The translations under genes and the position numbers were made by a program. DNA of 64,000 nucleotides from assembly GCA_947084965.1 (NCBI GenBank), contig CAMTUG010000004.1:87490-151489 (forward strand), given 5' to 3'. This stretch comes from an uncultured Parcubacteria group bacterium (lineage in GTDB: Bacteria > Patescibacteriota > Patescibacteriia > UBA9934 > CAMTUG01). The notes beneath the pieces are model-generated. The model was not told where the DNA came from. It did no database searches and worked only from the letters and a program-made list of their open reading frames with translations. Within the stretch, counting starts at the first letter, position 1. Each line of letters opens with the position of its first letter. Positions 10,753 to 32,684 of the stretch are shown here, in pieces.

Positions 10753-10756
10753 AAAT

Positions 10757-14788: not shown

Positions 14789-17700
14789 CTAGATCCCCTG
14801 CCAGGCGTAGGTGGTCGCGGAGCTCTCGAAGATCTCCACGTCGCGGGTGTTGGCCGAGAAGACCGCGTTCAGCCAGCACTGCGGCGTCGTGCCCGTCGAG
14901 CCGTCGATCACGAAGAGGGAGAAGACCCCGTCCGTGATCGTGAAGCTGTAGGACCCGGTGCCGGTGTAGGGCAGGTACTGCATCGCCCCGCCGGCCGAGT
15001 AGTCGATGACCCCGATCTGGTCGCCCGAGGTGAGGGTCATCGCCGAGGTGCAGTCGATCAGCGAGCTCGGGTCATCCAGGCCGCCCGAGAGGGTGAGGAC
15101 CAGGAAGCCGCCGCTCGCGACACCGTCCACGGTGAAGAGGCAGGTCGCCTCGTCCACGACCCCGTCGCAGTCGTTGTCGACGCCGTCGTCGCAGGTTTCG
15201 GCCGCGTCGGGGTTGCTGAGCGCGAGACTGTCCTCGCAGTCGTCCCCGCCGCAGGCCTCGCTCACGAGGCCGTCGCCGTCCTCGTCGTCCTCGCAGGTCC
15301 CGGTGTCGCCGCCCGAGTCGCCGGTGTCGGAGGTCTCGCAGACCTCCTCGTCGACGTCACCGTCGCAGTCGTCGTCGAGGGTGTTGCAGTACTCCTCGGC
15401 GCCGGGGTAGCTGGTGCGCTGGTTGTCGTCGCAGTCGGTCGCGTCGGCGACGTAGCCGCTGGGCTGGTCGCAGGCCGCGGTGGCGGTGGCGGTCTCGTCG
15501 CCGAAGCCGTCGCCGTCGCCGTCCGGGTACCAGTCGCTGTCGTCGATCGCGTCGTCCTCGTCGACTTCGCCGTCGCAGTCGTCGTCCTGGCCGTTGCAGA
15601 ACTCGTCGGCGCCGGGGTAGCTGTCGTCGTCGCCGTCGTCGCAGTCCTCGCAGGCCGCGAAGCCGTCGAGGTCGGCGTCGTCGTACATCACCGAGCCGTC
15701 GCAGTTGTAGTCCGTGGGGTCGGTGCAGTCCGACTCGTCCGCGCCCGGGTTGTAGAGCGCGTCGCCGTCGTCGCAGTCGCCGCCGATCGCGACGTAGCCG
15801 CTCGGCGCGTCGCAGGCGATCTGGGTGACGCTGTCGTCACCGTACTCGTCGTCGTCCGCGTCCGCGTACCACGTCCCCGCGTCGATCGCGTCGTTCTCGT
15901 CGACGTCACCGTCGCAGTCGTCGTCGAGGCCGTTGCAGGTCTCGGTCGCGGCAGGACTCACGTCGACGTTGCCGTCGTCGCAGTCGCCGTCGTTCTCGGA
16001 GTACCCGTCGCCGTCCTCGTCGGAGGCGTCGGTCCCCTGGTCGACGTTGCCATCGCAGTCGTCGTCGAGGCCGTTCTCGATCTCCTCGGCGCCCGGGTAG
16101 GTCGTGCGCTGGTTGTCGTCGCAGTCGGTCGCGTCGGCGACGTAGCCGCTGGGCTGGTCGCAGGCCGCGGTGGCGGTGGCGGTCTCGTCGCCGAAGCCGT
16201 CGCCGTCGCCGTCCGGGTACCAGTCGCTGGCGTCCTCGTCGACCGTCCCGTCGCAGTCCCGGTCCACCCCGTCCTCGCAGTCCTGCGGGGCGTCGGGGTT
16301 GGTGCGGAACACGCTGTCGTCGCAGTCGCCGTCGTCCTCGGTCCAGCCGTCACCGTCGTCGTCGTAGGAGTCGGTGTTGTTGTCCACGACCCCGTCGCAG
16401 TCGTCGTCGGCGCCGTTGACGTACTCGGTCGCACCCGGGTGGGTGCTGCGGTCGAGGTCGGCGCAGTCGCCGTCGCACTCGGTGTAGCCGTCGCCGTCCG
16501 CGTCGACCATGTCGCCCGGGTCGCTGTCGTCGCAGTCGCTCCAGTCGTCGACGTAGCCGGTGGGCGCGTCGCACTCGATGTCCATGACGCTCGCGTCGCC
16601 GTAGCCGTCGCCGTCCGCGTCCGCGTACCAGGTCGAGGCGTCGATCGCCTCGTCCTCGTCGACGTCACCGTCGCAGTCGTCGTCGACCTCGTTGCAGGAC
16701 TCCGCCTCGGCGGGGCTCACCGAGGAGTCGAGGTCGTCGCAGTCGTCGTCGTTCTCGACGTAGCCGGTGGGGAGCGAGCAGGCGGCGTGGGTGTTGCCCG
16801 CGTCGCCGTAGCTGTCCCGATCGAGGTCCGCGTACCAGGTCGAGGCGTCGATCGCCTCGTCCTCGTCGACGTCACCGTCGCAGTCGTTGTCGATCGTGTC
16901 GCAGATCTCGCTGTCGGCGGGCGAGATCGCGGCGTCGTCGTCGTCGCAGTCGTTGGCGTCGGCGACGTAGCCGCTCGGCTGGTTGCAGGCGTAGTCGATC
17001 GCGTCCTCGTTGCCGAAGCCGTCGCCGTCCGCGTCCGCGTACCAGGTCGAGGCGTCGATCGCCTCGTCCTCGTCGACCGTGCCGTCGCAGTTGTCGTCGA
17101 CCTCGTTGCAGGTCTCGAGCTCGCCCGGGTTGACGCTCGCGTCGGTGTCGTCGCAGTCGGTGGCGTCGACGACGTACCCCGCGGGGATGGTGCAGGAGGT
17201 GAGCGCGTTGTCCACGTCGCCGTAGCCGTCGCCGTCCACGTCGCCGAAGAAGTCGATCGCGTCCACCGCGTCGTCCTCGTCCACGATCGCGTCGCAGTCG
17301 TCGTCCACGCCGTTGCAGGACTCGGACTGGCCGACGAAGATCTCGGCGTCGAGGTCGTAGCAGTCGCGGCTGTCGGTCACGTAGCCGTCCGGCTGGCTGC
17401 AGGCCTCGACGGGCGCGTTCAGGTCGCCCTGGCCGTCGCCGTCGAGGTCGGCGTAGAAGGTCGAGGTCACGCCCTCGTCGACCGTGCCGTTGCAGTTGTC
17501 GTCGCGGTCGTTGCAGGCCTCGGTCGCGCCGGGGTTGACGTCGGCGTCCCCGTCGTCGCAGTCGCTGTCGTCGGCGACGTAGTGGCTCGGCGCCACGCAG
17601 TCGTCGATCGCGTCCGCGGAGTCGCCGTAGCCGTCCTGGTCGAGGTCGGCGTACCAGGTCCCGAGGGCGTTCTCGTCGACCGTGCCGTTGCAGTTGTCGT

Positions 17701-17977
17701 CGCGGTCGTTGCAGGCCTCGGTCGCGCCGGGGTTGACGTCGGCGTCCCCGTCGTCGCAGTCGCCGTCGTTCTCCGAGTACCCGTCGCCGTCGTTGTCGAC
17801 CTCGTCGGGATCCGGCTGGTCGATGTTGACGCCGGTGTCGTTGATCGGGTCCTGGAACCCGATCGTCTCGCAGCCGGCGAGGGTGAGGGTGATGAGCAGC
17901 CCGCCGATCTTGGCGCGGGTGCTCGAGGAGGCGGCCTTGCGGACGCCGGACTTCTTGGTGAGACGGAACAGGTTCAT
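14789..17977 (-). CDS. High-GC lipoprotein built from about 20 MopE-like (putative metal-binding, PF11617-type) Cys/Asp-rich modules
   Basis: Signal peptide plus lipobox (LITLTLAGCET). Tandem modules DCDDxDAxVNPGAxExCNxxDDNCDGxVDE(D)xAIDAxTWYADADGDGYG. The minus strand has recognisable motifs; plus-strand frames are V/A/G/R low complexity. Confidence 0.7.
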   Translation of the reverse strand: MNLFRLTKKSGVRKAASSSTRAKIGGLLITLTLAGCETIGFQDPINDTGVNIDQPDPDEVDNDGDGYSENDGDCDDGDADVNPGATEACNDRDDNCNGTVDENALGTWYADLDQDGYGDSADAIDDCVAPSHYVADDSDCDDGDADVNPGATEACNDRDDNCNGTVDEGVTSTFYADLDGDGQGDLNAPVEACSQPDGYVTDSRDCYDLDAEIFVGQSESCNGVDDDCDAIVDEDDAVDAIDFFGDVDGDGYGDVDNALTSCTIPAGYVVDATDCDDTDASVNPGELETCNEVDDNCDGTVDEDEAIDASTWYADADGDGFGNEDAIDYACNQPSGYVADANDCDDDDAAISPADSEICDTIDNDCDGDVDEDEAIDASTWYADLDRDSYGDAGNTHAACSLPTGYVENDDDCDDLDSSVSPAEAESCNEVDDDCDGDVDEDEAIDASTWYADADGDGYGDASVMDIECDAPTGYVDDWSDCDDSDPGDMVDADGDGYTECDGDCADLDRSTHPGATEYVNGADDDCDGVVDNNTDSYDDDGDGWTEDDGDCDDSVFRTNPDAPQDCEDGVDRDCDGTVDEDASDWYPDGDGDGFGDETATATAACDQPSGYVADATDCDDNQRTTYPGAEEIENGLDDDCDGNVDQGTDASDEDGDGYSENDGDCDDGNVDVSPAATETCNGLDDDCDGDVDENDAIDAGTWYADADDDEYGDDSVTQIACDAPSGYVAIGGDCDDGDALYNPGADESDCTDPTDYNCDGSVMYDDADLDGFAACEDCDDGDDDSYPGADEFCNGQDDDCDGEVDEDDAIDDSDWYPDGDGDGFGDETATATAACDQPSGYVADATDCDDNQRTSYPGAEEYCNTLDDDCDGDVDEEVCETSDTGDSGGDTGTCEDDEDGDGLVSEACGGDDCEDSLALSNPDAAETCDDGVDNDCDGVVDEATCLFTVDGVASGGFLVLTLSGGLDDPSSLIDCTSAMTLTSGDQIGVIDYSAGGAMQYLPYTGTGSYSFTITDGVFSLFVIDGSTGTTPQCWLNAVFSANTRDVEIFESSATTYAWQGI

Positions 17978-18138
17978 CCTGTCCTCCTGTGGTTGGGGGT
18001 CTACTTCTCTCGGACACTTCTCCGTCGTCAGGCCGACGGAGCACTAGAACACAAAAAGAGCTACGCGTTGCGTTTCCGCCTGATCCCCTCCCCATCAGTC
18101 GAAAACGACGCTAAAAATAGGCAAAATCACGGCCTGTG

Positions 18139-18167
18139 TTTTTATCACTTTTGCCCAAGAATGTCAA
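18139..18167 (-). promoter_or_regulatory. Candidate sigma70 promoter for gene 14789..17977
   Basis: On the minus strand, TTGACA, then 17 nt, then TAAAAA (weak -10 with TGA upstream); about 165 nt upstream of the start at 17977. Confidence 0.35.
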
Positions 18168-18369
18168 GAAATCGCTAACGAAATCTTTAAAAGTCGATGC
18201 GGTGTCGGTGCGTGGGGTGCCAGCCTCTGAGACGTACCCAAAATGTATGGCGAAGAAGTGGCAGGGACCCGCAAACCGGCAGATCGCAAATTCTGTACGT
18301 TTTAAAAAGCGTGATGCCCTCGGGAGTGTCCCAAGGGCATCAGAGCGTCGATCTACCCGGCCCGGTTGA

Positions 18370-20727
18370 TCAGTAGGCCTCGCGCAGCGAGAACTGGTCG
18401 AAGAGGTAGTCGCCGGATTCGAATCCGAGGCAGAGCGTATGATCCGCCTCGGTGGCGGTGAAGATCCAGGCGTACTCCTGCCAGGACGTCGTGGCGGCCG
18501 CCATCGTGTCGTCGTAGTCCCCGTCGCTCGCGCTCGGGGTGAGGTCGACAGTCGAACCGATCGAGCTCGTCTCGATCCAGGCGACTCCGAAGGAGAGCGA
18601 GGAGGCCGTCGTCGTCCGGTAGACGAAGGCGATCTCGTAGTCGACCCCGACCGTGAAGCCGGAGAACTCGGTGCAGACCCCGGCCTGGTACCAGTCCGAC
18701 GAGGTCGCCACGCTGACCTCCATGAAGTAGTCGTGGGACCCGACCGACGTGGTGTACACGTACGACGAGCTCTCCGAGTACCCGAGAGTGATGGCGTAGC
18801 TGCCCCAGGCGGTCCTGACCGCGGCCCAAACCGAACTGGGATCGCTGTCGATCGCCCCGTCCGTGAAGAAGCTCGAGCCCGTCGCCACGTAGCCCGTCCC
18901 GCTGACGCAGACCGTGGTGTCCTCGAAGTCCCAGAGGCCGTTGCAGTCGTTGTCGACCAGGTCGTAGCACTCGTGACCAGTTCCCCAGTCGTCCTCGGCG
19001 GTGTGAGCCGGGGACGCGGCCGCGGTGGTGTCGTCGCAGTCGCCGCCGGTCGTGACGTACCCCGAGAGGGTCGAACACGTGGTGGTGCCGGTGGACGAAT
19101 CGCCGTAGCCGTCGCCGTCCTCGTCGAGGTAGTAGGTGGTGCCCGCCCCCTCGTCGATCGTCCCGTCGCAGTCCTCGTCCATCCCGTCGCAGTTCTCGGT
19201 CGCGCCAGGGTAGACCCCGCTCGCGGCGTCGTTGCAGTCGCCGGCGTCCTCGGTGTAGCCGTCGCTGTCGTCGTCGTAGCAGGACGTCGTCTCATCGATC
19301 GTCCCGTCGCAGTCCTCGTCCACGCCGTCGCAGGACTCGCTCGCGCCGGGGCTCACGTCGGCGTCGCTGTCGTTGCAGTCACCGCCGGTTTCGGTGTACC
19401 CGTCGCCGTCGTCGTCGTAGAGCGAGGTCCCCTCGTCGACGATCCCGTCGCAGTCGTCGTCCACCAGGTTGGCGGACTCGGTGCCGCTCGGGTTGACCGT
19501 CGCATCGCTGTCGTCGCAGTCATCGTCGTTCTCGACGTAGCCGGCGGGGAGCGCGCAGGCGGCGAGCGTGCTGTCCGGGTCGCCGTAGCTGTCGCCGTCG
19601 TAGTCGCGGTAGTAGACGTTGGCCGTGAGGCCGTCGTCCACCGTCCCGTCGCAGTCGTCGTCCACGCCGTTGCAGGACTCGGTCGCCGAGGTGTTGACCG
19701 CCGCGTCGCCGTCGTTGCAGTCGCCGGCGCAGGTGGTCTCCCCGTCGCCGTCGCTGTCGACATCTTCGTCGATCGTGCCGTCGCAGTCCTCGTCGATCGT
19801 GCCGTCGCAGACTTCGCTCGCGCCGGGGTTGACCGCCGCGTCGCCGTCGTCGCAGTCCGACTCGCAGACCATGTACCCGTCGCGGTCGTCGTCCGCCTCG
19901 TCGCTTCCGGCGCTGCCATCGCAGTCGTCGTCCACGCCGTTGCAGGACTCGGTCGCGTCCGGGTTGACCGCCGCGTCGCCGTCGTTGCAGTCGTCGGCGT
20001 TGTCGGCGTAGCCGGTCGGCAGGTCGCAGGCCTCGGCCGGGACGAGCTCGTTGCCGAACCCATCGCCGTCCGCGTCCTCGTACCAGGTCGGCATGTCCAC
20101 GGCGTCCTCGTCGACCTCCCCGTCGCAGTCGTTGTCGACGTCGTCGCAGAGCTCATCGAGGTCGGGGGCGGCGGCGACGTTGCCGTCGTCGCAGTCCCCG
20201 GCGCAGGTCGTCCAGCCGTCGCCGTCCGCGTCCACGTCCTCGTTGATCTCCCCGTCGCAGTCGTTGTCGATCTCGTCCTCGCAGCTCTCCTCGAGTCCGG
20301 GGCTCGCGGTCGACAGGGCGTCGTCGCAGTCCCCGTCGCACTCGGTGTAGCCGTCGCTGTCGTCGTCGACCATGTCGCCGGCCGTGGTGTCGTCGCAGTC
20401 GCCCGCGACGGCCACGAAGCTGGTCGGCTGGTCGCAGGCGATCTCGGTGGTGGCTTCGTCGCCGTAGCCATCGCCGTCCGCGTCCGCGTACCAGGTCGGC
20501 ATGTCGATGGCGTCCTCGTCGATCTCGCCGTCGCAGTCGTCGTCGAGGTCGTTGCAGACCTCGTCGGTCGGGACGCAGCCGGAATCGGTGTCGGTGTCCG
20601 TGTCCGTATCGGTGTCCGTATCGGTGTCCGTGTCCGTGTCGGTGTCGGCGTCACCCGAATCACCAACGATGGTAGACTTGCCGAGGGTCAGCTCAGCGAG
20701 GCAGGCCATGAGGGTCAGTAGCAACAT
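18370..20727 (-). CDS. High-GC MopE-like Cys/Asp-rich modular lipoprotein with an N-terminal (Thr-Asp)n linker and a C-terminal beta-rich domain
   Basis: Start taken at the internal ATG giving MLLLTLMACLAELTL (signal peptide). A (DT)12 tract is followed by about 12 MopE-like modules. Confidence 0.65.
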   Translation of the reverse strand: MLLLTLMACLAELTLGKSTIVGDSGDADTDTDTDTDTDTDTDTDTDTDSGCVPTDEVCNDLDDDCDGEIDEDAIDMPTWYADADGDGYGDEATTEIACDQPTSFVAVAGDCDDTTAGDMVDDDSDGYTECDGDCDDALSTASPGLEESCEDEIDNDCDGEINEDVDADGDGWTTCAGDCDDGNVAAAPDLDELCDDVDNDCDGEVDEDAVDMPTWYEDADGDGFGNELVPAEACDLPTGYADNADDCNDGDAAVNPDATESCNGVDDDCDGSAGSDEADDDRDGYMVCESDCDDGDAAVNPGASEVCDGTIDEDCDGTIDEDVDSDGDGETTCAGDCNDGDAAVNTSATESCNGVDDDCDGTVDDGLTANVYYRDYDGDSYGDPDSTLAACALPAGYVENDDDCDDSDATVNPSGTESANLVDDDCDGIVDEGTSLYDDDGDGYTETGGDCNDSDADVSPGASESCDGVDEDCDGTIDETTSCYDDDSDGYTEDAGDCNDAASGVYPGATENCDGMDEDCDGTIDEGAGTTYYLDEDGDGYGDSSTGTTTCSTLSGYVTTGGDCDDTTAAASPAHTAEDDWGTGHECYDLVDNDCNGLWDFEDTTVCVSGTGYVATGSSFFTDGAIDSDPSSVWAAVRTAWGSYAITLGYSESSSYVYTTSVGSHDYFMEVSVATSSDWYQAGVCTEFSGFTVGVDYEIAFVYRTTTASSLSFGVAWIETSSIGSTVDLTPSASDGDYDDTMAAATTSWQEYAWIFTATEADHTLCLGFESGDYLFDQFSLREAY
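20575..20650. repeat. In-frame hexanucleotide microsatellite (GTGTCS/GTATCG)n encoding (Thr-Asp)n
   Basis: About 12 tandem 6-mers, seen directly in the sequence. Confidence 0.8.
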
Positions 20728-20926
20728 GTGGGGCTCCGTGCTGGGGTCAGGGTGTATCCTTACAAGCACCGCGAACTTGCGGGCTTCTGAATGCACATAA
20801 AAAGTGTTCAGTCAGAAATCCACAAATTCACCACACGATCCACTAAAGTGCGACCATTATAATTATCACAGAAAAATGAACTTGTCCAGTAGCTGCGGGC
20901 CCAATAAATAGCTCAATAAAGCACAG

Positions 20927-20975
20927 CACCCCCTCGGAGAGCTTCTCCGCGGGGGTGTCAGACGTAGTTCACGGC
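20927..20975 (-). terminator. Rho-independent terminator for gene 21024..21812
   Basis: On the minus strand, CACCCCC-GCGGAGAAGCTCTCCGAG-GGGGTG followed by CTGTGCTTTATTGAGCTATTTATTG. Confidence 0.5.
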
Positions 20976-21023
20976 CGGCACCCACGCTTCGAAGTCTTCG
21001 AAGGGATGCCGGGCCGGGCAGGG

Positions 21024-21812
<789 letters not shown>

Positions 21813-21956
21813 GGGGGTCTCCTTGGCGCTTGGGGGTTGGCCTTGTCAGGGCCGGGAACAGAACGCAATCCTTCATCGGTTGACGGCCGATATACCGATC
21901 CTGATCCTTTGGGTTTGAACCAGGACAGGCGGGAAGCTCTTTGGAAAGTCGTAATT

Positions 21957-22017
21957 GGTAAGTGGCAAGGAGAGACGCTCGTGTCTCCGCTTTCCACTTA
22001 CTGCTTACCACTTTCTA
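21957..22017. repeat. GTAAGTGG-family palindromic hairpin element, copy A (empty loop)
   Basis: GGTAAGTGGCAAGGAGAGACGCTCGTGTCTCCGCTTTCCACTTACTGCTTACCAC with central stem GAGAC/GTCTC; about 170 nt 3' of gene 22184..23638. Confidence 0.55.
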
Positions 22018-22183
22018 CAGAACTTTCCACCGTCCTAATTCTTGGATCGGTCGCAGGCCAAAGCCTGCAGCTACCACGATCTTGTAAAGGACACTCTGAG
22101 GGCACCATACCATGATGATGATCTCGGAGTGTCGTTGCTGAGGAGTGGCCCCAGCAACGATCACGGTGAGTCCCCCGACTCCT

Positions 22184-23638
22184 CTACATCGGGGGGGGCG
22201 AACCAGCGGGGGCGGCGGTGCTGGTCGCGGGGGCGGGGGCGACGGGGGCGGACACGGCGTAGGGCGACCAGGCGATGTCCTTCGTCTTGCCGCCGAAACG
22301 GTAGACGATGAGCGCGCTGGCCTGGAAGGTCGTGACCCCTCCACCGTTCTTGTAGCCCCAGGTGTTGTCCCCGGTGCGCAGGATGTCGGACTGTCCGAAG
22401 AGCCCGCCGCCCTGGACCTCGAGGCCCAGGCCGTTCGGCTTCAGCGGCATGAGGTCCACCATCGCGACGAGGCCGAGGAGCGCCCCGTTCACGACGACCT
22501 CGGCCGACCCGTCAGCGTCGGTGCTGCCGACGCCAAGGCTCTGGTACCCGCCCCGCAGGCCGATGGAGAAGGCGGGGACCGGGGTCACGAACCCGGTACC
22601 GCCGAAGCCGTAGGCGTCCGAGTACTCGCTGAGGAGGCCGAAGTTCCCGTAGGCGTTGAACCCGCCGTAGGTGCCCTCCATGCCCCAGCCCCCCTGGATC
22701 GCGGGGCCGGTGTGCCCACCAGACGACATGATGCCGCCGCCGATGGTGAACATCCCGTACTGGCCGTTGTTGAGCTTGGTGACGATCGAGGCCACGCCCG
22801 CCTCGGCGTTGGCGGCGCGGGCCTCGGCGTTGTCGGCCGTGCCCTGGGCACGGGTGATGCCGGCGAGGAACCCGGCGTTGGTCTCGGTCTGGGCCGTCCG
22901 GAAGCCCGCGAAGTCGGACTGGGTTGCCTGGGCCATGGTCATGGCGCCGGTCGCCGTGCCCATCGCGTCCGCCGCGAGCTGCCCCACGGCACGGGTCTCG
23001 ACGAGCGCGGTGTAGATGCCGGAGCAGACGACGGCCCCGGCGCTGTCCTTGACCTCGACCTGGCCGTTCATCGCGTCCCGCGTGGCCGTGAAGCCCGCGG
23101 GGAGCGTGCCGCCCAGCGCCACCTGCTGGCACTTGGACTCGGCGTCGAGGGCGCTCACGTTGCCCTCGAGGGCGGTGACCTTCTTCTCGGTCTTGGTCAC
23201 GCGCAGGCCGAGGGACGCGAGGGCGGCGGAGCTGGCGCCGTCGGTGTTCGTCGTGACGCCGAGGCACTGCTTCGCCTGCTTGTCCCACTCCATGTTGACC
23301 TGGACGCCGTTCTGGATCGGGTCGTCGCACCCGGCCTTGCGCGCCGGGGTGTCCCAGTGGGTGCGGGTGCAGATGGCGAGGGTCGACACGGCGCCGTTGT
23401 AGCACTCGACGGGCGCCGCGAGCAGGGCCTGGCCCCACTTCGCGATGTCCGGGTTGTCCCGGAGCACGTCGCTGATCTTGGGGGCTCCGGCGGGGGTGGT
23501 GCTGGTCGTCGGGGCCGGGGTCGTGCCGGTCACCGGGGTGGTCGCCTGGCCCGGGGTGAGGGCGTAGGCGGGGTTGATGCCGGTGACGACGGCGGCGCTG
23601 GCGAGAGCCAGGGTGATGAGCAGGTTGCGGACGTGCAT
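22184..23638 (-). CDS. High-GC secreted Gly/Ala/Thr-rich protein of unknown function
   Basis: Signal peptide MHVRNLLITLALASAAVVTG, a Cys-containing N-terminal domain and a Gly-rich C-terminal half (GGGIMSSGGHTGPAIQGGWGMEGTYGGF). Confidence 0.55.
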   Translation of the reverse strand: MHVRNLLITLALASAAVVTGINPAYALTPGQATTPVTGTTPAPTTSTTPAGAPKISDVLRDNPDIAKWGQALLAAPVECYNGAVSTLAICTRTHWDTPARKAGCDDPIQNGVQVNMEWDKQAKQCLGVTTNTDGASSAALASLGLRVTKTEKKVTALEGNVSALDAESKCQQVALGGTLPAGFTATRDAMNGQVEVKDSAGAVVCSGIYTALVETRAVGQLAADAMGTATGAMTMAQATQSDFAGFRTAQTETNAGFLAGITRAQGTADNAEARAANAEAGVASIVTKLNNGQYGMFTIGGGIMSSGGHTGPAIQGGWGMEGTYGGFNAYGNFGLLSEYSDAYGFGGTGFVTPVPAFSIGLRGGYQSLGVGSTDADGSAEVVVNGALLGLVAMVDLMPLKPNGLGLEVQGGGLFGQSDILRTGDNTWGYKNGGGVTTFQASALIVYRFGGKTKDIAWSPYAVSAPVAPAPATSTAAPAGSPPPM

Positions 23639-23816
23639 GGGTTCCTCCTTCAGTGAGGGGTGAGAAACCGTCGGATGCCTCCGCCGGTTCCTTTTGTGTC
23701 GTTACAGAGCCACTGTCCTGTCCGCCCTTGCGGGTCAGAACAGCGCCCGTCCGTTGATCCAAGGTGTCGAACCTACGGACGGACGGATTTCGAATTGGAA
23801 GGTGGGAAGGTGGAAA

Positions 23817-23884
23817 GCGGTAATTGGTAAGTGGAGAGTGGAGACACGAGTGTCTCTGCTTACTACTTACTGCTTACCACTTTC
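23817..23884. repeat. GTAAGTGG-family palindromic hairpin element, copy B (empty loop)
   Basis: GGTAATTGGTAAGTGGAGAGTGGAGACACGAGTGTCTCTGCTTACTACTTACTGCTTACCAC; direct-orientation copy of element A, lying in the 5' leader of gene 22184..23638. Confidence 0.55.
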
Positions 23885-24074
23885 ATAACTTCTTTCCACT
23901 CCGAAATCCATCCGCCCTCGGCCGATCCAAGGACCTTTCCGTAAACCGATCTTGTAATGAACGCTCGTGTGGTCTGACAGGACTCAACCACAAGGAGGAG
24001 ATGTGGCGAATACTGCCGGACCGCACGATAATTCATTGAGTCTAGGGACAATTCGCCCATTTAGCGAACGTGTG

Positions 24075-24103
24075 AGAATAGCAGGTTTTCCCAAAAATGT
24101 CAA
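24075..24103 (-). promoter_or_regulatory. Candidate sigma70 promoter about 440 nt upstream of gene 22184..23638
   Basis: On the minus strand, TTGACA, then 17 nt (TTTTTGGGAAAACCTGC), then TATTCT. Confidence 0.4.
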
Positions 24104-24257
24104 GAACCCCCGTTTTCGGCTCTGTAGTCACTTGTCGTGATGAGGAGGAGGCATCATGACCGTGCGCTATAGAGCCGAAAGAGGGGGTCCTAGTGGAAGT
24201 ACCTTAGAAGAATAGACGTGCTGTGTCAAGGTGGTGTGGATAATTAAAAATCGCTCT

Positions 24258-24717
24258 AGGATTAGCGAAATTTGAAATTCAGAAACTCAGAAATTGGATA
24301 GGATGGGTCAACGCTTCTGATTCAATGAAAGATTACGAGTGGAGCTGATATAACGATTCAAAACCATGTGAAGAGACTCAAGTTTGGTCAGCAGCAACGT
24401 TTTTTCTGATTCTACTATCTTCCCTCTCTCAAATAACCTCTCTGTCCAATGAATAGCCTCAACAAGGGATCCACGGGCGTTATAATTGAACTTATTTTTA
24501 TCAAGATAATGAAACCTTCCGAACCCCTCAGCAATATTTGCACCGACGGAATCAATGGCAGAAATCCATTGGTCGCCCATGATCTTCTTGTCCTGCCAAT
24601 GCATCCGATCGTATATATTCCATGCAACTTGCGCACTCTCGACAGATAATCGATAAGCATCTAACTCCGTAAGTTGCATACCCCCAGCCCAATTTCTAAT
24701 TTCTGATTTTCAAATTT
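24258..24717 (-). other. IVS-like cassette: four-helix-bundle gene in the loop of an inverted heptamer-repeat hairpin (GAAATTY family)
   Basis: Flank 24258-24290 is GAAATTTGAAATTCAGAAACTCAGAAATTG. Flank 24683-24715 is CAATTTCTAATTTCTGATTTTCAAATTTC, whose reverse complement is GAAATTTGAAAATCAGAAATTAGAAATTG. Confidence 0.45.
24308..24679 (-). CDS. Four-helix-bundle protein (TIGR02436; 23S rRNA intervening-sequence protein / Avd family)
   Basis: Family hallmark ISAIDSVGANIAEGFGRFHYLDKNKFNYNARGSLVE. It is a paralog of 25406..25771. Confidence 0.8.
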   Translation of the reverse strand: MQLTELDAYRLSVESAQVAWNIYDRMHWQDKKIMGDQWISAIDSVGANIAEGFGRFHYLDKNKFNYNARGSLVEAIHWTERLFERGKIVESEKTLLLTKLESLHMVLNRYISSTRNLSLNQKR

Positions 24718-25347
24718 CTATTCATGGATCAACTGGTGTCTCCGACGAATCCGTTCCACTTTCAAGAGAACGAATCCGACCCCGGCCAATCCACCCAAAA
24801 TCGCACCAGCAAAAGCATTCAACGGAATGTTTGGCCGAACGGGCCAGTTTGAGCTCAAAGGTTCATCAACGAGCTGAATCGAGATCGATCCCCCGCTCGT
24901 ATACTGCCACCCTTCGGTCACAATCACCGCCCCCAGGGCGCGGGCGATCAATTCCGCCTGGGCAACATCTTCATGATAAACAACGATAGTCAGCAACCCC
25001 GTTCCACGGGCAACGGACGCCTGCACCGTCTCTCCCCACTTCTTACGCTTTTTCTGATCATCGCTCGGGAAATAATCCTGATCGATCTGACTCGACGCGG
25101 CCATCACCTTTTCGAAAAACGTGGTGGTGTAAATGACGTTGGTAATATCTTCGGCCACACGCTCGGCCGAACGCGACGCGGTGTAGGCATCAACGGCGCC
25201 CAGCTGTTGGATGATCAACAAACGTTCGGTCGAAGAATATTCAAGCGGACGCAGAAACGACAAAATCACTCCGAGGAGTAATCCGATCGCGGCCATCAAG
25301 ACGATGGTGTGCCAGAAGTTGATGAGGGTTGTGGAATATTTGGGCAT
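24718..25347 (-). CDS. Wzz-like polysaccharide chain-length-determinant domain protein (2 TM)
   Basis: N- and C-terminal TM segments flanking a periplasmic-like domain; the size and architecture fit a Wzz N-terminal domain. Confidence 0.45.
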   Translation of the reverse strand: MPKYSTTLINFWHTIVLMAAIGLLLGVILSFLRPLEYSSTERLLIIQQLGAVDAYTASRSAERVAEDITNVIYTTTFFEKVMAASSQIDQDYFPSDDQKKRKKWGETVQASVARGTGLLTIVVYHEDVAQAELIARALGAVIVTEGWQYTSGGSISIQLVDEPLSSNWPVRPNIPLNAFAGAILGGLAGVGFVLLKVERIRRRHQLIHE

Positions 25348-25371
25348 AGGGGGAAAGGAAAGAGGTGAGAG

Positions 25372-25806
25372 GAAAGCAGTAAGCAGTAAGTGGTAAGTGG
25401 AGATACTAACGAAGGATGGAACGGTCTTTGGTTGCTGCGATGTAATTATTCAGCATCTTCATGAGCCGACCAATTTTTTCATTGTACGAACCGAGCTCCT
25501 CTATTGAAACCTTCTGCCGTTCTCCCAAAACATCTGTCCAGTGCTGAGCCTCCTGTAATGAACCACGGGCGTTGTAATTAAATTTGTTCTTATCCAAATA
25601 ATGGAATCGACCGTACCCCTCGGCAATATTTGCCCCAACGGAGTCAATAGCCGTAATCCACTGATCACCCATGATCTTCTTTTCCTGCCAAGTCATCCGT
25701 TCATACACCGCCCACGCTTCACGAGAAATCTCCCGAGCTAACTGGTAAACGTAGATTTCCGTAAGCGCCATAGTGTCTCCACTTACTGCTTACCACTTAC
25801 TACTTT
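25372..25806 (-). other. IVS-like cassette: four-helix-bundle gene in the loop of the GTAAGTGG-family hairpin
   Basis: 25372-25405 is AGCAGTAAGCAGTAAGTGGTAAGTGGAGATAC. The reverse complement of 25772-25806 is AGTAGTAAGTGGTAAGCAGTAAGTGGAGACAC. The arms match the halves of empty elements A and B. Confidence 0.5.
25406..25771 (-). CDS. Four-helix-bundle protein (TIGR02436 / Avd family), paralog
   Basis: ITAIDSVGANIAEGYGRFHYLDKNKFNYNARGSLQE; about 60% identical to 24308..24679. Confidence 0.8.
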   Translation of the reverse strand: MALTEIYVYQLAREISREAWAVYERMTWQEKKIMGDQWITAIDSVGANIAEGYGRFHYLDKNKFNYNARGSLQEAQHWTDVLGERQKVSIEELGSYNEKIGRLMKMLNNYIAATKDRSILR

Positions 25807-25811
25807 CTCAT

Positions 25812-26843
25812 CTATCTCCGCCCCAATTGTACATCAATCATCACTTCTTCACCACCGCGATCGATCGTTAATCGCACCGTTTCTTCGGGTGCATAGGACA
25901 ACAGACGTTCGGCAAACGATTCATCACCGAGCGCCATTCCTCCAACGTGAGTGATAATGTCCCCACGACGAACACCAGCGATCGCTGCAGGTCCGTTCAC
26001 AACGACCGTATCAATGTACGTGCCACGACTGAACCCACGATCAATCCCTGCTGGAACATGGACGGCGGAAAGATCGATGACCGTCGCTCCAAACACCGTG
26101 CGTGCACTTTCACCCGATCGAATGACAGATCGCACCACAGGGAGCAATTGGTGGAGGGGCGTGCCGTCGATCGCAATCAACTCCCCTGCCGAATTGACGA
26201 CCGGTGTTCCAGGAAGCGGAAAAAGATCGGCGTAGGTGAAACTGCGGGTGAACGTTTCGGCCGGCAGTCTGGCAACGGTCGCATTCCAGTGATGCGCATC
26301 GACCACGGCCGTTGGCAACAGAGCCGATGCCGACGTTGCGGCAAAAGCCAGCGAACCGCTTTCGACCTGATCCGACGCACCAAACGGAATGACCGGCAAC
26401 CCACTCGCTTCGAGACGATAAAAATAGATCTCGGTGTACGGATCGCTGACAGAATCAACAATCGTGTACTCCGTTTCACCGATGAAGGCGTGCAAGGGAG
26501 CGTCCCCTTCGGCCGTTTCCACGCTCGTCATCACCCAGCCATCAGAAGTGATGACCACACCGAGAGAGTCCTCTTCACCCGGAAGGAGGATCGGATCGAT
26601 ACCGCCGACACGTTGAAATCGCACCAACGCCGGCTGCACAACGTCACGCGCCCGGGCCGCTGCTTCTTCGAACGTCCCCGGAATCGGTTGCGGCTTTTCT
26701 TGCGACAAACGAATGACTTCATTGCCAGCACCTTCGAGCGAAGCGGCGTATCGATCTAAATATTCCGCGCTCCAAACAGAAGCGAAGATACCGGCCGAAA
26801 GGCCAGCGGCGACCGACAAGACGATCAACAGAATTTTTTGCAT
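25812..26843 (-). CDS. Secreted trypsin-like (HtrA/S1C-like) protease-fold protein with a C-terminal PDZ domain
   Basis: Signal peptide, protease-like core (TPVVNSAGELIAIDG) and PDZ-like GVRRGDIITHVGGMALGD. The catalytic triad was not verified. Confidence 0.5.
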   Translation of the reverse strand: MQKILLIVLSVAAGLSAGIFASVWSAEYLDRYAASLEGAGNEVIRLSQEKPQPIPGTFEEAAARARDVVQPALVRFQRVGGIDPILLPGEEDSLGVVITSDGWVMTSVETAEGDAPLHAFIGETEYTIVDSVSDPYTEIYFYRLEASGLPVIPFGASDQVESGSLAFAATSASALLPTAVVDAHHWNATVARLPAETFTRSFTYADLFPLPGTPVVNSAGELIAIDGTPLHQLLPVVRSVIRSGESARTVFGATVIDLSAVHVPAGIDRGFSRGTYIDTVVVNGPAAIAGVRRGDIITHVGGMALGDESFAERLLSYAPEETVRLTIDRGGEEVMIDVQLGRR

Positions 26844-26844
26844 A

Positions 26845-27609
26845 TTACGTCCACTGAGCAGTGAGCAGAATCGCGAGGATCATTAGAGTGCCGACGGTGA
26901 TGTAACGACGAACGACCGTTTTCGATAACTTCGACGATAAGTTCGCACGCGAAAGGCCAAGGTACATGTAATAGAGAACCGCGACAAGGGCACCGTCCGT
27001 AATGTACATCGTTGGTAAATAGGTAATCACCACTAACAGCTCAGCGAAGATCACCGCAGCGGCCAGCGCGTACACAGCGGCGCGCTGAAGCGGAACTTTC
27101 GAAATCCACAACGCGGAAAGCGTCAATGTAAAACAGAGAACAGCAAAAGAGATCGCAAAGAGGTACAGGGGGATGCGAGCAAACGAGTAGAGCGCATGAC
27201 CGCCAGCGGCGAGAAAAAACAAGGTAACAACGGCCATAATCCCTCCGGAGTTTTGTAGACTGTACGCTTGATAAGCCCCAGGCAGATGCAAATATGTAAA
27301 CAAGTTCTCCGCATAAAAATAGGCAACGCCGGCACCAAGAAGAATGACAAGAAATCGAATAGCGGTATCGTCAGCAAGCATGAACAGGAGGACTGTGGCC
27401 AGAATGTGGAGTGTGGGGATCGCGACCAGACCCCAAAACTCCTTTTCGCGAAAGCGCGCACCAGCAAGACGGAAGAAGAGGGACAGAGCGAGGACGGTGA
27501 CGATCGTCAAAATCCAGACGGCAGACATCGGATGATAGGAAACGAAAAGCATCCCCGTGGCAAAGACGGTTGCGATAACAAACGGCGTGATGCGATGGAG
27601 AAGAATCAT
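26845..27609 (-). CDS. Polytopic membrane protein of unknown function
   Basis: 254 aa with 7-8 hydrophobic segments. Confidence 0.4.
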   Translation of the reverse strand: MILLHRITPFVIATVFATGMLFVSYHPMSAVWILTIVTVLALSLFFRLAGARFREKEFWGLVAIPTLHILATVLLFMLADDTAIRFLVILLGAGVAYFYAENLFTYLHLPGAYQAYSLQNSGGIMAVVTLFFLAAGGHALYSFARIPLYLFAISFAVLCFTLTLSALWISKVPLQRAAVYALAAAVIFAELLVVITYLPTMYITDGALVAVLYYMYLGLSRANLSSKLSKTVVRRYITVGTLMILAILLTAQWT

Positions 27610-27618
27610 GAATGGACG

Positions 27619-28320
27619 TTACTCTTCGACGATCAACGTTCCCTGAATCACCAGCGATCCTTCAGAAAGTTCGACCGCGGTCAGTTGGGCATACGGTCTG
27701 ATCGCTTCGTTAAACGGCGCCGTCGCTTGAGTGATCACGGCCTGCAGCGACCAGGTGAACAACCAGCGTGGAAGCGGAAGGGATCCGACAGAAAGACGCG
27801 TCAGTTTGAATTGAAGCCCTCCTTCTTCAATCACGGGTTTTACCGCGATCGTCACACCAGCGGCCGGGGCATCTTGCACGAGGGGGAGATAAAATTCAAC
27901 TTCACTCCCGGCAATCACCGCCACCTGCGTCTGTTCGATGTCGACGATCGTGGCCCCTGTTTTTTCGATCATCTGACGGGCAGACGCAGTCAATGACGAC
28001 TCTTCTAGGGTCAGGGTGATGGCGTCCGTGCGCCGGGCGATCTGCGCGCTGATCTGGGAGGGAACGGTTTCTTCAACGGGCACGCCGGCCGCCACAAGAT
28101 GATCCGGCGTATCGGCTCGATGAATCGCTAAAAAAAGAAAGATCGCCGCGCTGCACAGGAGCGTGAGGCTCACTCCCCAAAAAATCACTTTGCGTCGAAG
28201 CGCGGCACCGAATCTGGTGCTCGGGGTGTCCGAACTCGATGGCCGTGCGGCTTTTGGATCAGCGATCAATTCGATCCGTGCCATAAACTGATTATTCAAT
28301 CCAAGAGTACTGATCGACAA
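27619..28320 (-). CDS. Membrane-anchored hypothetical protein
   Basis: Single TM (VIFWGVSLTLLCSAAIFLFLAI) followed by a soluble domain. Confidence 0.35.
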   Translation of the reverse strand: MSISTLGLNNQFMARIELIADPKAARPSSSDTPSTRFGAALRRKVIFWGVSLTLLCSAAIFLFLAIHRADTPDHLVAAGVPVEETVPSQISAQIARRTDAITLTLEESSLTASARQMIEKTGATIVDIEQTQVAVIAGSEVEFYLPLVQDAPAAGVTIAVKPVIEEGGLQFKLTRLSVGSLPLPRWLFTWSLQAVITQATAPFNEAIRPYAQLTAVELSEGSLVIQGTLIVEE

Positions 28321-28714
28321 GCGTCTGCCAACGCGCTTCGGCCCCTTCCGTTCCGTTCATCCAGTCGGTGAGCAGAATCACCAGATCAAGATGAAGATCT
28401 TTATATTCAGACGGGACGTGCAGTTGAAGTAACGCTTCGCGCGCTTTGGAAAGAATCTCACTCTTCCCTTCTGACGCCGATTCAGCGGCGATGCGTGTTC
28501 GCACATCTCCAAGGATCGCGTGAGCGTTGGCTTGATACTCAACGGAGGTGACGGCCGACGGAACGGTCGGTTCGAGCGTGGCGCGATCTTTAAAAATGGA
28601 AAAAATAGCACCGGCAAGGATGAGGGTCAGCACGCCGACGAGGATCGGGAAATATGTTTTGTGATGAAGCATAACGTTAAGTCTTTTCTTGATTGCGAAT
28701 GACGTCGTACACAA
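28292..28714 (-). CDS. Small membrane-anchored hypothetical protein
   Basis: N-terminal TM (YFPILVGVLTLILAGAIFSIF); translationally coupled to its neighbours. Confidence 0.35.
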   Translation of the reverse strand: MCTTSFAIKKRLNVMLHHKTYFPILVGVLTLILAGAIFSIFKDRATLEPTVPSAVTSVEYQANAHAILGDVRTRIAAESASEGKSEILSKAREALLQLHVPSEYKDLHLDLVILLTDWMNGTEGAEARWQTLVDQYSWIE

Positions 28715-29711
28715 AGACGCTGGTCATAGTAGCGACAGGGATAGCGAGCGCAGCCCCGGCGATCCCGCCGAGTTTGAAGCCGATCAACAAGGCGACGATC
28801 GACACGATCGGATTTAATCCGGTCACCTTCTGCATCACCTTCGGAATTAAAATGTGATTCTCCACTTGCTGAATGATGATGTACAGGAGCAAAACCATCA
28901 CCGCTTTCACCGGCGATTCACCAAAGGCGATGACGATCGCGGGGATCGCCGAAAGCGTTGGACCGGCGTACGGAATCACTTCGAGCAAGCCGGCAAGTAG
29001 GGCGAGGACGAGGGCATACGGCACACCGAGGATAGTGAGACCGAGATAGGCACAGACAGCGATGACGATCATCAACAGCAACTGTCCGCGCAGCCACTGA
29101 CCGATCTTTTCCTGCATCTTGTTAAACAACTGGGTGAGGTATGGCTGATATTCGTCCGGGGAAAGGCGGCGGAAGATGCGCTTCCAAGCATCTTCTTCAA
29201 CGACAATATAAAACGCCAGAACGAGGACGATGAAAAAGGCGGCAACGCCCCCGATGATCCCGGTGACCGTAGCGAACAGCCCTGTAAGGAGCGAGCCCGC
29301 CTGTTCACGGAGCTGATCGATCGAAGCGTTGATACTTTCTTGGATGCCGTACTGTTCACCAAAAGCGATCAGACGATTGACCTGTTCAGAAACATTGCCT
29401 GCTGCCCCAGAAAAATTATTCAGCAGTTCATGAAACTGCGAAACGAACGGCGGGATGATCAAAATGAGACTGGTGGAGAGGATCGAGAACAGGATGACGT
29501 AAATAGTGATCACTCCCAGGGGGCGCGGGATTTTTCGGCGATGCAACCAACTAACGGCCGGCTCAATCAGTGCCGAGAGCATCAGGGCGAGCAGGAGCAT
29601 GATGACGATCTCTTTGATGTACCACAAAAAGCCGACAGCAAGGGCGATCACCAGGACACGAAAGATCGTGCCGGTCGAGATACTGATCGATTGTGGAATA
29701 GCGCGCGGCAT
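28677..29711 (-). CDS. AI-2E family transporter (PerM/UPF0118)
   Basis: 344 aa with about 8 TM segments and the family-typical length and loop pattern. Confidence 0.65.
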   Translation of the reverse strand: MPRAIPQSISISTGTIFRVLVIALAVGFLWYIKEIVIMLLLALMLSALIEPAVSWLHRRKIPRPLGVITIYVILFSILSTSLILIIPPFVSQFHELLNNFSGAAGNVSEQVNRLIAFGEQYGIQESINASIDQLREQAGSLLTGLFATVTGIIGGVAAFFIVLVLAFYIVVEEDAWKRIFRRLSPDEYQPYLTQLFNKMQEKIGQWLRGQLLLMIVIAVCAYLGLTILGVPYALVLALLAGLLEVIPYAGPTLSAIPAIVIAFGESPVKAVMVLLLYIIIQQVENHILIPKVMQKVTGLNPIVSIVALLIGFKLGGIAGAALAIPVATMTSVFVYDVIRNQEKT

Positions 29712-29787
29712 ACGTCGCCAATTTTAGCATATTCCCCCCATATCCTCCACTTACCACTTACTGCTTACCGCTTTCTTTCCCAGTTCC

Positions 29788-29816
29788 TTGACATTTTTGC
29801 CAAATTTTGCTATATT
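29788..29816 (+). promoter_or_regulatory. Consensus sigma70 promoter for the high-GC gene at 29960
   Basis: TTGACA, then 17 nt (TTTTTGCCAAATTTTGC), then TATATT. A GGAGGA Shine-Dalgarno lies 7 nt before the ATG at 29960. Confidence 0.55.
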
Positions 29817-29959
29817 CTTCAGTCGGTTTTCCCTGCGTCTTGGCGCTCCCGCGCACAATTCGCTTCGATTTCCATTCCCCCCGCCGCCTGGACCGACACA
29901 GGTGGTTCCGTTCGAGACCCAAGGCCCCCGTGGGCCACTTCCCGTCCCTGGAGGACACC

Positions 29960-30646
29960 ATGCCGACCGCAACCCCCCACCCCGCGTGGGTTCTCGCCGC
30001 ACAGCTGTGTGGCATCGCCCCCGACACCGCCGACGAGGTGGAGAAGGGCCAGATCGAGGCGGCGCTCGCCGATCTCAAGGCCGCCTTCGCGACCCGCATG
30101 CCGATCATCCCGACCGCCGAGGACATCAAGGAGATCGCCCGCGAGGAGGCCGAGCACGTCATGCCGGTGATCCCCGAGCGCGGACTCGTGGATCGCTGGG
30201 CCGGCACGTTCGCGGTCCTCGGGCTGATCCTCGGCCTCGCCGGCACGATCGGCGCCGCCGCGGTCGCGTGGAAGTCGACGATGGACGAGCGGGAGCTGTG
30301 GCTCCGCGTCGCGACGGAGAGCTACGCGACCCAGTACCAACTCCCCGGCCGCATCGCCGCGGTCGAGGGCGCGATCGCCACGCTCCAGGCGGCCCAGCCC
30401 ACCCCGGCCCCCGCCGCCCCGCCGCCCCCGGCCACCACCACCGACCCCGCCGCCCCCGCCCAGCCCACCGCCGCCGCCATGGACGACGCCAACATCTCGG
30501 CGAAGTGCAACAACATCGTGGCGCTCGGCGGCACCGATGGCTACCGGCTCGACCAGTGCGCCGACAGCCAGACCTACGTCTGCCGCGCCTACGACCAGCC
30601 GCGGGGGCAGGTCTCGGAGTGTGCCCTCGCGAGCACGGTCCCCTAG
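29960..30646 (+). CDS. High-GC membrane protein of unknown function (Pro/Ala-rich linker, Cys-containing C-terminal domain)
   Basis: Start moved from the track's 29807 to the ATG at 29960, because 29807 lies inside the promoter. TM segment FAVLGLILGLAGTIGAAAVAW. Confidence 0.5.
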   Translation: MPTATPHPAWVLAAQLCGIAPDTADEVEKGQIEAALADLKAAFATRMPIIPTAEDIKEIAREEAEHVMPVIPERGLVDRWAGTFAVLGLILGLAGTIGAAAVAWKSTMDERELWLRVATESYATQYQLPGRIAAVEGAIATLQAAQPTPAPAAPPPPATTTDPAAPAQPTAAAMDDANISAKCNNIVALGGTDGYRLDQCADSQTYVCRAYDQPRGQVSECALASTVP

Positions 30647-30672
30647 GACCTGCCACACCGATGGGCAGGTCC
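30647..30672 (+). terminator. Hairpin 3' of gene 29960..30646
   Basis: GGACCTGCC-CACACCGAT-GGCAGGTCC with no clear T-tract. Confidence 0.3.
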
Positions 30673-30734
30673 GCGACCCTGCCTATCTCTCGACTCCCTT
30701 CAGCACTACGGCTGGAGGGATTCGTGTTTATTGG

Positions 30735-30862
30735 AAGGAAAATTCGAAATACGAATGTCGAAATTCGAAATAAAAGGAAATACAAAAAAGTAAAAGTTTC
30801 CAAATTTCCCATTTCCGGTTAGGATTTGTTTCGTGCTTCGTATTTCGGATTTCGTATTTATA
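30735..30862. repeat. Heptamer-repeat inverted-arm hairpin (GAAATWC family), no gene in the loop, immediately 5' of smpB
   Basis: Left arm AAATTCGAAATACGAATGTCGAAATTCGAAAT; right arm CTTCGTATTTCGGATTTCGTATTTATAC. Confidence 0.4.
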
Positions 30863-30867
30863 CCTCC

Positions 30868-31311: not shown

Positions 31312-31444
31312 TGACGAATGCTTTGAAAAACTCGAGATGCAAGGCGTGGGACAGCGAGCTCTGAGACGTAGGTAAATCCTACGTTGAGGAGCGAGCAGGG
31401 ACCCACAACACAGCAGATCGAGGAATTTCAAAGCATGAGTTTAT

Positions 31445-31826: not shown

Positions 31827-31889
31827 GTTCATATAACAGACTTTGCTTCGCACGTCTGTCAATCCGGTCAATCCATAAGAAACATTACA

Positions 31890-32441: not shown

Positions 32442-32496
32442 GATGCGGCGGCATAGGAAAAGGTTAGAGGAAAGAGGAAAAAGTGAAGGAAATTGT

Positions 32497-32682: not shown

Positions 32683-32684
32683 GT

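Follow-up and report, generated by a model that had tools for sequence, protein, structure and literature searches.

Two genes of the four-helix-bundle (4HB) family PF05635, here called P1 and P2, lie in a 64,000-nucleotide (nt) stretch of DNA from an uncultured Parcubacteria group bacterium (contig CAMTUG010000004.1, positions 87,490 to 151,489; hereafter, the window), and we lean toward reading both as hairpin cassettes of the intervening sequence (IVS) type that lie outside rRNA. The proposed unit is a PF05635 open reading frame (ORF) set between two mutually inverted arrays of short tandem repeats (period of 7 in the window), one adjoining its start codon and the other its stop codon. Such an element, outside rRNA and in ORF-bearing and ORF-less forms, would be a variant of the known IVS. 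The two filled units comprise the following features:

25406 to 25771, minus strand: P2, a 4HB gene of 121 amino acids (aa) (PF05635/TIGR02436), cargo of a hairpin with GTAAGYR arms
25771 to 25826, minus strand: 5′ arm of the P2 unit, in the sense direction GAAAG(TAGTAAG)(TGGTAAG)(CAGTAAG)TGGAGACACT, then ATG
25352 to 25408, minus strand: 3′ arm of the P2 unit, made up of TAG TATCTCCACTTACCACTTACTGCTTACTGCTTTC and an outer portion
24308 to 24679, minus strand: P1, a 4HB gene of 123 aa (PF05635/TIGR02436)
24683 to 24718, minus strand: 5′ arm of the P1 unit, GAAATTTGAAAATCAGAAATTAGAAATTGG..., beginning at the GNVR stop codon
24267 to 24302, minus strand: 3′ arm of the P1 unit, CCAATTTCTGAGTTTCTGAATTTCAAATTTC, with a terminator-like hairpin (24251–24268) coming next

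The core arms of the P2 unit (25372–25408 and 25771–25807; arms C and D) are 37 nt long, 84% complementary, and composed of GTAAGYR heptamers that reach into the stop and start codons, with weaker pairing beyond them as far as about 25352 and 25826. Those of the P1 unit (24267–24302 and 24683–24718) are built from a second heptamer family, GAAATTY, and measure 36 nt at 75% complementarity. In both filled units, the closing stem measures ~35 to 45 bp in minimum free energy and centroid structures. The units are set in a co-directional operon with the order PDZ protease–P2–GNVR–P1. The 5′ arm of P2, which holds a Shine-Dalgarno (SD)-like GGAG, occupies the entire spacer behind the PDZ-protease stop codon at 25812, and the 3′ arm stops 5 nt short of the GNVR start codon at 25347 (its heptamer core, 25372–25408, stops 25 nt short). 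Neighboring genes encode the PDZ protease, the GNVR/Wzz-like protein, a DUF5656 protein, an AI-2E transporter, and secreted repeat proteins.

Related arms recur in the window without an ORF between them:

21928 to 22031: hairpin A, ORF-less, GTAAKYR arms (heptamer core 21951–22015), loop of 6 nt
23777 to 23917: hairpin B, ORF-less, GTAAKYR arms (heptamer core 23813–23884), loop of 3 to 4 nt
29745 to 29777: solitary arm E (CCTCCACTTACCACTTACTGCTTACCGCTTTC), 30/31 identical to the reverse complement of the arm at 25372–25402
10753 to 10872: ORF-less hairpin with (AAATTCG)n and (TTCGTAT)n arms, loop of 36 nt, fold z = −2.5
30740 to 30859: ORF-less hairpin of the AAATTCG family, loop of about 58 nt, fold z = −3.2

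The inner ends of the P2 arms (GGAGACACT-ATG ... TAG-TATCTCC) are matched by the apex ends of both compact hairpins, which read GGAGAGAC-GCTCGT-GTCTCC in A and GGAGACAC-GAG-TGTCTC in B (arm ends GGAGACAC/GTGTCTC). When the arms of A and B were aligned to those around P2, the scores exceeded all 1,000 shuffles (z = 6 to 14), and alignment of A to B gave z = 12 to 20 against the same number of shuffles. The heptamer pattern GTAAGYRGTAAG (≤1 mismatch) occurs 18 times in the window versus 0.28 times expected from shuffles, and the two hairpins fold at −52 to −54 kcal/mol (z = −5.6 to −7.2). A chance origin of the heptamer arms and of the likeness between A and B is excluded. The initial annotation, which had described P2 as bracketed by inverted arms equal to the halves of compact hairpins with loops of a few nucleotides, and P1 as bracketed by a second arm family, was correct on both counts. 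The two AAATTCG hairpins are tentatively assigned to the P1 arm family, given that their heptamer is a rotation of GAAATTC; the one at 30740–30859 is situated at the end of a high-GC ORF region, upstream of smpB. An independent Logan assembly (L001) is 100% identical to the window over 21611–35771, which makes an assembly error unlikely.

Other arrays in the window differ from these in sequence. A hairpin at 12428–12541 (−38.9 kcal/mol; z = −5.6), at the border of a high-GC block, has heptamer-like arms of opposite chirality, with a C-rich 5′ arm (CCAAACT...) and a G-rich 3′ arm. Two purine-rich GGTTAGAGGAAA-type arrays lie at 4992–5098 and 32455–32492, of which one pairs as a hairpin with a CCTCTTTCC partner and the other is solitary and directly upstream of the L35 gene start.

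Both P1 and P2 are PF05635/TIGR02436 four-helix-bundle proteins, as established from hidden Markov model (HMM) matches and a predicted fold. The two ORFs score 61.2 and 74.3 bits against PF05635 (cutoff of 33.8; E values of 1e-17 and 1e-21) and 61.7 and 72.9 bits against TIGR02436 (cutoff of 24), and they share 60% identity. The AlphaFold (AF2) monomer model has four helices (pLDDT of 90.3), and Foldseek matches it to Xcc0516 (2GSC; TM of 0.85 to 0.87), to BT_0352 (2RLD; 0.78), and, more distantly, to Avd of diversity-generating retroelements (DGRs) (4DWL; 0.77), agreeing with the earlier assignment to an Avd/23S-IVS family; profile matches to 2RLD and 2GSC stand at 2e-6 and 2e-4. The family motif has been quoted as GxxRxxxSxxxNxxE (PMC3936711). 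Its S44-x3-N48-x2-E51 portion is present and invariant, and the upstream GxxR is replaced (P2 reads GDQWITAIDS). The closest homologues, at 55 to 64% identity, come from the candidate phyla radiation (CPR)/Patescibacteria (Uhrbacteria, Liptonbacteria, Harrisonbacteria), and 27 positions are invariant across the 31 sequences of the 4HB alignment, indicating that the protein is under purifying selection. A PADLOC search for defense-system membership had no hit.

We surveyed 80 metagenome loci encoding 4HB homologues (CPR/Patescibacteria), in which 62 4HB genes were testable, with the arm score defined as that of the best inverted repeat when the 150 nt on the upstream side of an ORF were compared with the 150 nt on its downstream side. 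At a threshold of ≥30, arms enclose 40 of the 62 4HB genes (65%) versus 7 of 195 control ORFs out of the same loci (4%; Mann-Whitney P = 1e-26), so that the association of hairpins with 4HB genes extends well past the window. A stem with tandem repeats and an enclosed ORF, outside rRNA, is the normal state in a large CPR subfamily. Arms usually start 0 to 40 nt from the start codon and about ≤30 nt from the stop codon, and their tandem repeats have periods of 7 (15 loci), 8 (4 loci), 10 (5 loci), 11 (3 loci), and 9 (1 locus). Their sequence varies by locus, with GTAAKNN, GAAATTN, GAGATAAA, GTKATTG, and ATRGTTA as recurrent families, and the arms are asymmetric in composition, rich in G and poor in C on the 5′ side and the opposite on the 3′ side (275 G-C versus 51 C-G pairs). 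Units are embedded in co-directional gene runs: neighbors are co-oriented in 53 of 63 cases upstream and 53 of 61 downstream, at median gaps of 53 and 63 nt, respectively. These neighbors are diverse (124 ORFs falling into 85 clusters), and within one conserved gene cluster the 4HB gene occupies differing spacers among genomes. Rfam searches returned only tRNAs in the 80 loci (0/80 in rRNA) and a tmRNA as the sole match in the window; P1 and P2 are not in rRNA, and the hairpins match no known RNA family in Rfam. The units thus sit in ordinary intergenic DNA, as had been proposed. Empty hairpins that share the arms of a nearby filled unit were found at five of the related loci (L074, L075, L080, L119, and L121). 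At L075, a solitary 3′-type array (CCCTAATTACTAATTACCCAATTACTAATTACTCC; 2773–2810) of the same family as the adjoining filled and empty hairpins lies in frame within a peptidyl-tRNA hydrolase coding sequence.

Outside this sample, an exact 20-mer of the right arm, ACTTACTGCTTACCRCTTWC, occurs in 40 unrelated GTDB representative genomes (L002 to L041) from many phyla, versus about 4 expected by our own estimate, and in nearly all of them falls within an intergenic tandem array, (CTTACYR)n. In at least five of the 40, the array has an inverted partner, (YRGTAAG)n, ≤600 nt away. The CPR-subfamily HMM detected a single 4HB gene beside these arrays, in Paludibacter (L035; E = 0.002, a weak match), a count that is a lower bound because this HMM is narrow. 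The Paludibacter ORF is flanked by (GTAAGCR)n and (CTTACTG)n, which indicates that the arm-plus-4HB build extends beyond the CPR.

Orthologous junctions supply the most direct view of how such units come and go. The operon AI-2E–x–x–DUF5656–PDZ–GNVR is kept in seven relatives, in which GNVR orthologues have 73 to 86% identity, and the two junctions of interest differ in state among genomes:

PDZ–GNVR junction, window: filled, 464 nt
PDZ–GNVR junction, L127 (sister): empty hairpin, 107 nt
PDZ–GNVR junction, L123 and L124: empty hairpin of purine/pyrimidine arrays, 125 to 126 nt
PDZ–GNVR junction, L125, L126, L128, L129, and L130: tight spacer, −4 to 7 nt
Junction after GNVR, window: filled (P1 unit)
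Junction after GNVR, L127: empty hairpin, related GGAAATT arms
Junction after GNVR, L123 and L124: filled, GGAGAAA arms
Junction after GNVR, L125 and L126: none
Junction after GNVR, L128, L129, and L130: no 4HB gene called (gene calls only)

The window and its sister, L127, thus differ in the presence of the ORF at two junctions. In a neighbor-joining tree of three concatenated proteins, these two are sisters and L124 falls elsewhere, grouped with L125; it follows that at one and the same junction there was more than one gain, or precise loss, of a hairpin. The 4HB proteins after GNVR in the window and in L123 are not mutual best matches, which favors independent acquisition. That hairpins can acquire or lose the ORF, one of two possibilities raised in the initial annotation, is supported by these bare, empty, and filled states. 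The other, a small insertion cassette that targets palindromic sites, also finds support, in that hairpin B and its counterpart in L123 extend the apex of a leader hairpin. A and B are not free-standing target sites; both sit in leaders. The outer flanks of the P2 unit resemble the empty hairpin of L123 at the PDZ–GNVR junction, a short and weak alignment that suggests nesting.

Hairpins A and B occupy paralogous 5′ leaders of two secreted-protein genes, A that of gene 21024–21812 (minus strand) and B that of gene 22184–23638 (minus strand), where it tops a conserved outer stem (23777–23800 and 23894–23917). The base of this stem (GGCGGATGGAAGT ... ACTTCCGTCCGTCC) is conserved in relatives; the leader hairpin is short in L125, L126, and L128, and its apex is lengthened by about 90 to 100 nt, with GTAAGYR arrays in the window and GGAGAAA arrays in L123. 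Comparison across these genomes shows hairpin B to be a lineage-specific extension that tops a leader hairpin which is itself conserved. The same minus-strand leader of gene 22184–23638 contains two hairpins with CCUCCUCC (anti-SD-like) loops, followed by GTTCATTACAAG (24103–24191 and about 23951–24021), whose position is kept in L123 and L125 to L128 and which have no Rfam match; a paralogous leader precedes gene 21024–21812. This conserved leader of secreted-protein genes may be a previously undescribed cis-regulatory leader.

The surrounding sequence is a GC mosaic. Blocks of 63 to 70% GC (12600–13800, 14700–23850, 29850–30750, 33000–36900, and 37950–39450), which encode secreted or repeat proteins (MopE-type Cu-binding, Asp-Thr, and TSP3 repeats), are set in a backbone of 46 to 56% GC, with low-GC spacers between them. 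The high-GC genes downstream of GNVR have conserved counterparts in L125, L126, and L128, high in GC as well, so that the mosaic is a lineage trait rather than a chimera or recent transfer; an assembly chimera was rejected as its cause because the Logan contig is identical and relatives keep the high-GC genes. An IS200-like Y1 transposase ORF (13989–14672, plus strand; PF01797, HYH motif) has the palindrome GATACCGGCTTCWGAAGCCGGTATC on either side (13912–13940 and 14673–14700), the arrangement of a repetitive extragenic palindrome (REP)-associated tyrosine transposase (RAYT). A tmRNA gene (31445–31826) adjoins smpB, and a restriction/defense cluster at 41695–60208 includes, by Pfam, a ParB-N/N6_N4 methylase, GmrSD, and type I restriction-modification HsdR and HsdM.

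In the interpretation that we favor, the units would be transcribed by read-through, because they fill operon spacers, in which no promoter of their own would fit; since the spacers are filled completely, any transcript that contains the ORF must contain both arms. Within it, the arms would pair into a duplex of 35 to 45 bp that buries the SD-like GGAG and that RNase III would cut, by analogy with rRNA IVSs. The cut would release the loop with its ORF and uncouple the cistrons on either side, and through this release and separation the cassette could be tolerated within an operon or an rRNA helix at little cost. At the DNA level, the hairpin, with or without its ORF, would constitute a gain-and-loss element that arises de novo at tight gene junctions and at the apices of existing hairpins, and the unit presumably moves as a whole. 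Arrays look homogenized within a genome and differ between genomes, as seen in the 30/31 match of arm E to arm C and in the single array family of L123. Of the explanations considered here, we judge that the cassette model accounts best for why one protein family is located precisely in the loop.

A stronger version, possible but doubtful, holds that the 4HB protein itself promotes the process by which its cognate tandem-repeat hairpin is copied or inserted into the apices of hairpins and into gene junctions. The hairpin and ORF would then form an autonomous selfish element, the ORF-less hairpins would be non-autonomous derivatives, and rRNA IVSs would be copies that landed in rRNA helices.

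Several observations weigh against the cassette interpretation. A motif scan of the window, the only search made for rnc, found none. No reverse transcriptase (RT), transposase, invertase, or recombinase adjoins the P1 and P2 units, and target-site duplications, which the initial annotation had brought up, were not found (no direct repeats around the unit arms). Flanking arms are absent from 35% of the CPR loci and are thus not universal in the family, and the single 4HB match in a plasmid collection (Pseudanabaena) has none. Among arm mismatches, G·U pairs are not in excess (57, versus 63 A·C), and there is thus no signature of selection on a sense-strand RNA stem; the symmetry of the arms would fit a DNA-level origin equally well. 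Arm copies within the window are just 76 to 84% alike, E versus C excepted, unlike those of an actively transposing miniature inverted-repeat transposable element (MITE), and the two spacers of L123 have folds of lower significance (z = −3.6 and −1.0). Finally, the states of the junctions are compatible with either direction, ORF gain into empty hairpins or empty hairpins as products of ORF deletion.

Among the alternatives, the heptamer arrays might be binding sites, as operator or RNA, for the 4HB protein, with each paralogue regulating itself and a small regulon (the A and B leaders and the E promoter) and with the hairpin shape being secondary. The two paralogues do have two arm families, each with extra ORF-less sites in the window, and of these sites A and B lie in 5′ leaders and E, 35 nt upstream of the AI-2E transporter start (minus strand), directly before a near-consensus promoter-like site (TTGACA-17-TATATT, with TG; 29788–29816, plus strand) that faces a high-GC ORF, with the −35 box adjoining E. 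In the DGR ribonucleoprotein, Avd-type proteins bind nucleic acid (PDB 8UB7/8UB8 among the fold matches). Arm similarity also rises with 4HB protein similarity (Spearman coefficient of 0.40; permutation P = 5e-4), but this co-divergence is equally expected if the arms and the ORF are inherited or moved jointly. Sequence-specific binding is not known for the PF05635 family, all arrays in L123 are of one family whichever gene they flank, and the (CTTACYR)n arrays of 40 genomes mostly lack a detectable 4HB gene nearby. Since the exact position of the ORF in the loop would also be left unexplained, we consider regulation through bound arrays rather unlikely.

It is unlikely that the hairpins are ordinary intergenic palindromes (terminators, mRNA stabilizers, or REP-like sequences) between two of which the 4HB genes lie by coincidence. 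Heptamer arrays and hairpins do occupy many spacers of the window and of the related loci, whatever the neighboring genes, and heptamer direct repeats before start codons are known from other phyla (PMC4679880). Coincidence would not yield the 65% versus 4% enrichment around 4HB genes, arms that extend to the start and stop codons themselves, or apex ends in A and B (GGAGACAC/GTGTCTCC) equal to the inner ends of the P2 arms. A terminator scan (stem plus T run) reported one site, just past the P1 unit (24251–24268), and did not report A, B, or the unit arms as intrinsic terminators (short GC-rich stem plus T run), and the REP hairpins of the window RAYT are different.

Mobilization of the units as MITE-like non-autonomous transposons by a transposase encoded elsewhere, such as the Y1 enzyme at 13989–14672, with the 4HB gene as passenger, seems quite improbable. 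Terminal inverted repeats, the coexistence of ORF-less and ORF-bearing copies, presence/absence differences between sites, and a Y1 transposase within the window would all agree with it; against it stand the lack of target-site duplications, arms that are tandem arrays of variable register rather than defined ends, the unrelated hairpins (GATACCGGCTTCWGAAGCCGGTATC) that the Y1 transposase already has, and a cargo that always belongs to the same protein family. Least likely of all is an invertible switch in which the arms serve as recombination sites for the 4HB gene or (E with C) for the whole 4.3-kb operon: inverted repeats of 35 to 50 nt surround a promoterless gene and E and C are 30/31 complementary across 4.3 kb, but no invertase or recombinase was found nearby, the 4HB gene is co-oriented with its neighbors in about 85% of loci, two independent assemblies show one orientation, and ORF-less hairpins with loops of 3 to 6 nt cannot switch. 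Two further candidates were dropped, a DGR (no RT and no template/variable repeat [TR/VR] pair adjoining the genes) and integron attC sites (no integrase and no R′/R″ cores).

With the cassette interpretation as the favored one, the units can be compared with several known systems. Intergenic heptamer direct repeats upstream of start codons have been described in the Beggiatoaceae (TAACTGA), Bacteroidetes, and cyanobacteria (PMC4679880). As in the present genomes, they are genome-specific tandem heptamers in the spacers of distant phyla, usually before start codons, and arm E and the 5′ arms fit this description. They differ in being direct arrays (one inverted case in 170 sets) with no matched pair enclosing a gene and no reported link to PF05635 (PMC4679880). 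REPINs/RAYTs and the small dispersed repeats of cyanobacteria (PMC3116915) are likewise short, palindromic, and intergenic, and they spread as hairpins through a genome. The present arms, by contrast, are tandem with variable register, hold a specific small ORF in the loop, have no associated transposase that we found, and are unrelated to the GATACCGGCTTCWGAAGCCGGTATC hairpins flanking the Y1 transposase ORF of the window. Small dispersed repeats are said by Elhai et al. to nest within each other and within stems, and the cyanobacterial short tandemly repeated repetitive sequences (STRR) are comparable intergenic heptamer repeats.

Avd (4DWL, 8UB7) shares the four-helix-bundle fold (TM of 0.77), and PF05635 and Avd have been placed in one superfamily (PMC10053308). 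However, identity is only 8 to 9%, no RT or TR/VR pair lies beside P1 or P2 (with no TR/VR-like long direct repeat in 21500–26200), and enclosing inverted heptamer arrays are not a described feature of Avd genes. PF05635 genes wedged into other operons, for example, between cmr3 and cmr2, have already been noted without explanation (PMC3936711). In the open-access literature, we found no paper linking free-standing PF05635 genes to matched inverted heptamer arrays or to ORF-less counterparts, although a prior description is possible.

The closest likeness is to the 23S rRNA IVS. That of Coxiella burnetii has a 28-bp terminal inverted-repeat stem with an S23p ORF in the loop, is cut by RNase III within the stem (in vitro and as mapped by RACE), and carries two or three tandem heptamers (GACAGAT), in strain-variable number, directly upstream of that ORF's start codon; an older idea, quoted in the same study, holds the IVS to be a mobile element whose ORF aids mobility (PMC4990558). 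The present units have the same build, as the reference to IVS-like stems with an ORF in the initial annotation had anticipated: the same protein family in the loop as in the 23S IVSs of Coxiella burnetii and Leptospira, a stem of terminal inverted repeats, about 28 bp or longer, around the ORF, tandem heptamers of variable copy number just before the start codon as in the Coxiella type, and a position at the apex of a preexisting helix. The ORF-less hairpins, too, have their parallel, in the ORF-less IVS hairpins of Salmonella, Yersinia, and Campylobacter. The differences lie in location (helix 25 or 45 of the 23S rRNA gene, versus operon spacers and 5′ leaders here), in the state of the ORF (decaying in the Coxiella IVS, versus a 4HB protein that is strongly conserved here), and in processing, with RNase III cleavage demonstrated for the Coxiella IVS and presumed by analogy for the present units. 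Both rRNA IVSs and the PF05635 family have been without an explanation since the early 1990s. The comparison makes the question comparative and testable, with hundreds of natural insertion, deletion, and arm variants at hand, and it ties a specific gene family to the intergenic heptamer arrays whose abundance in several phyla has gone unexplained. Viewed in this way, the classic rRNA IVS looks like a single instance of a broader hairpin element that is gained and lost.

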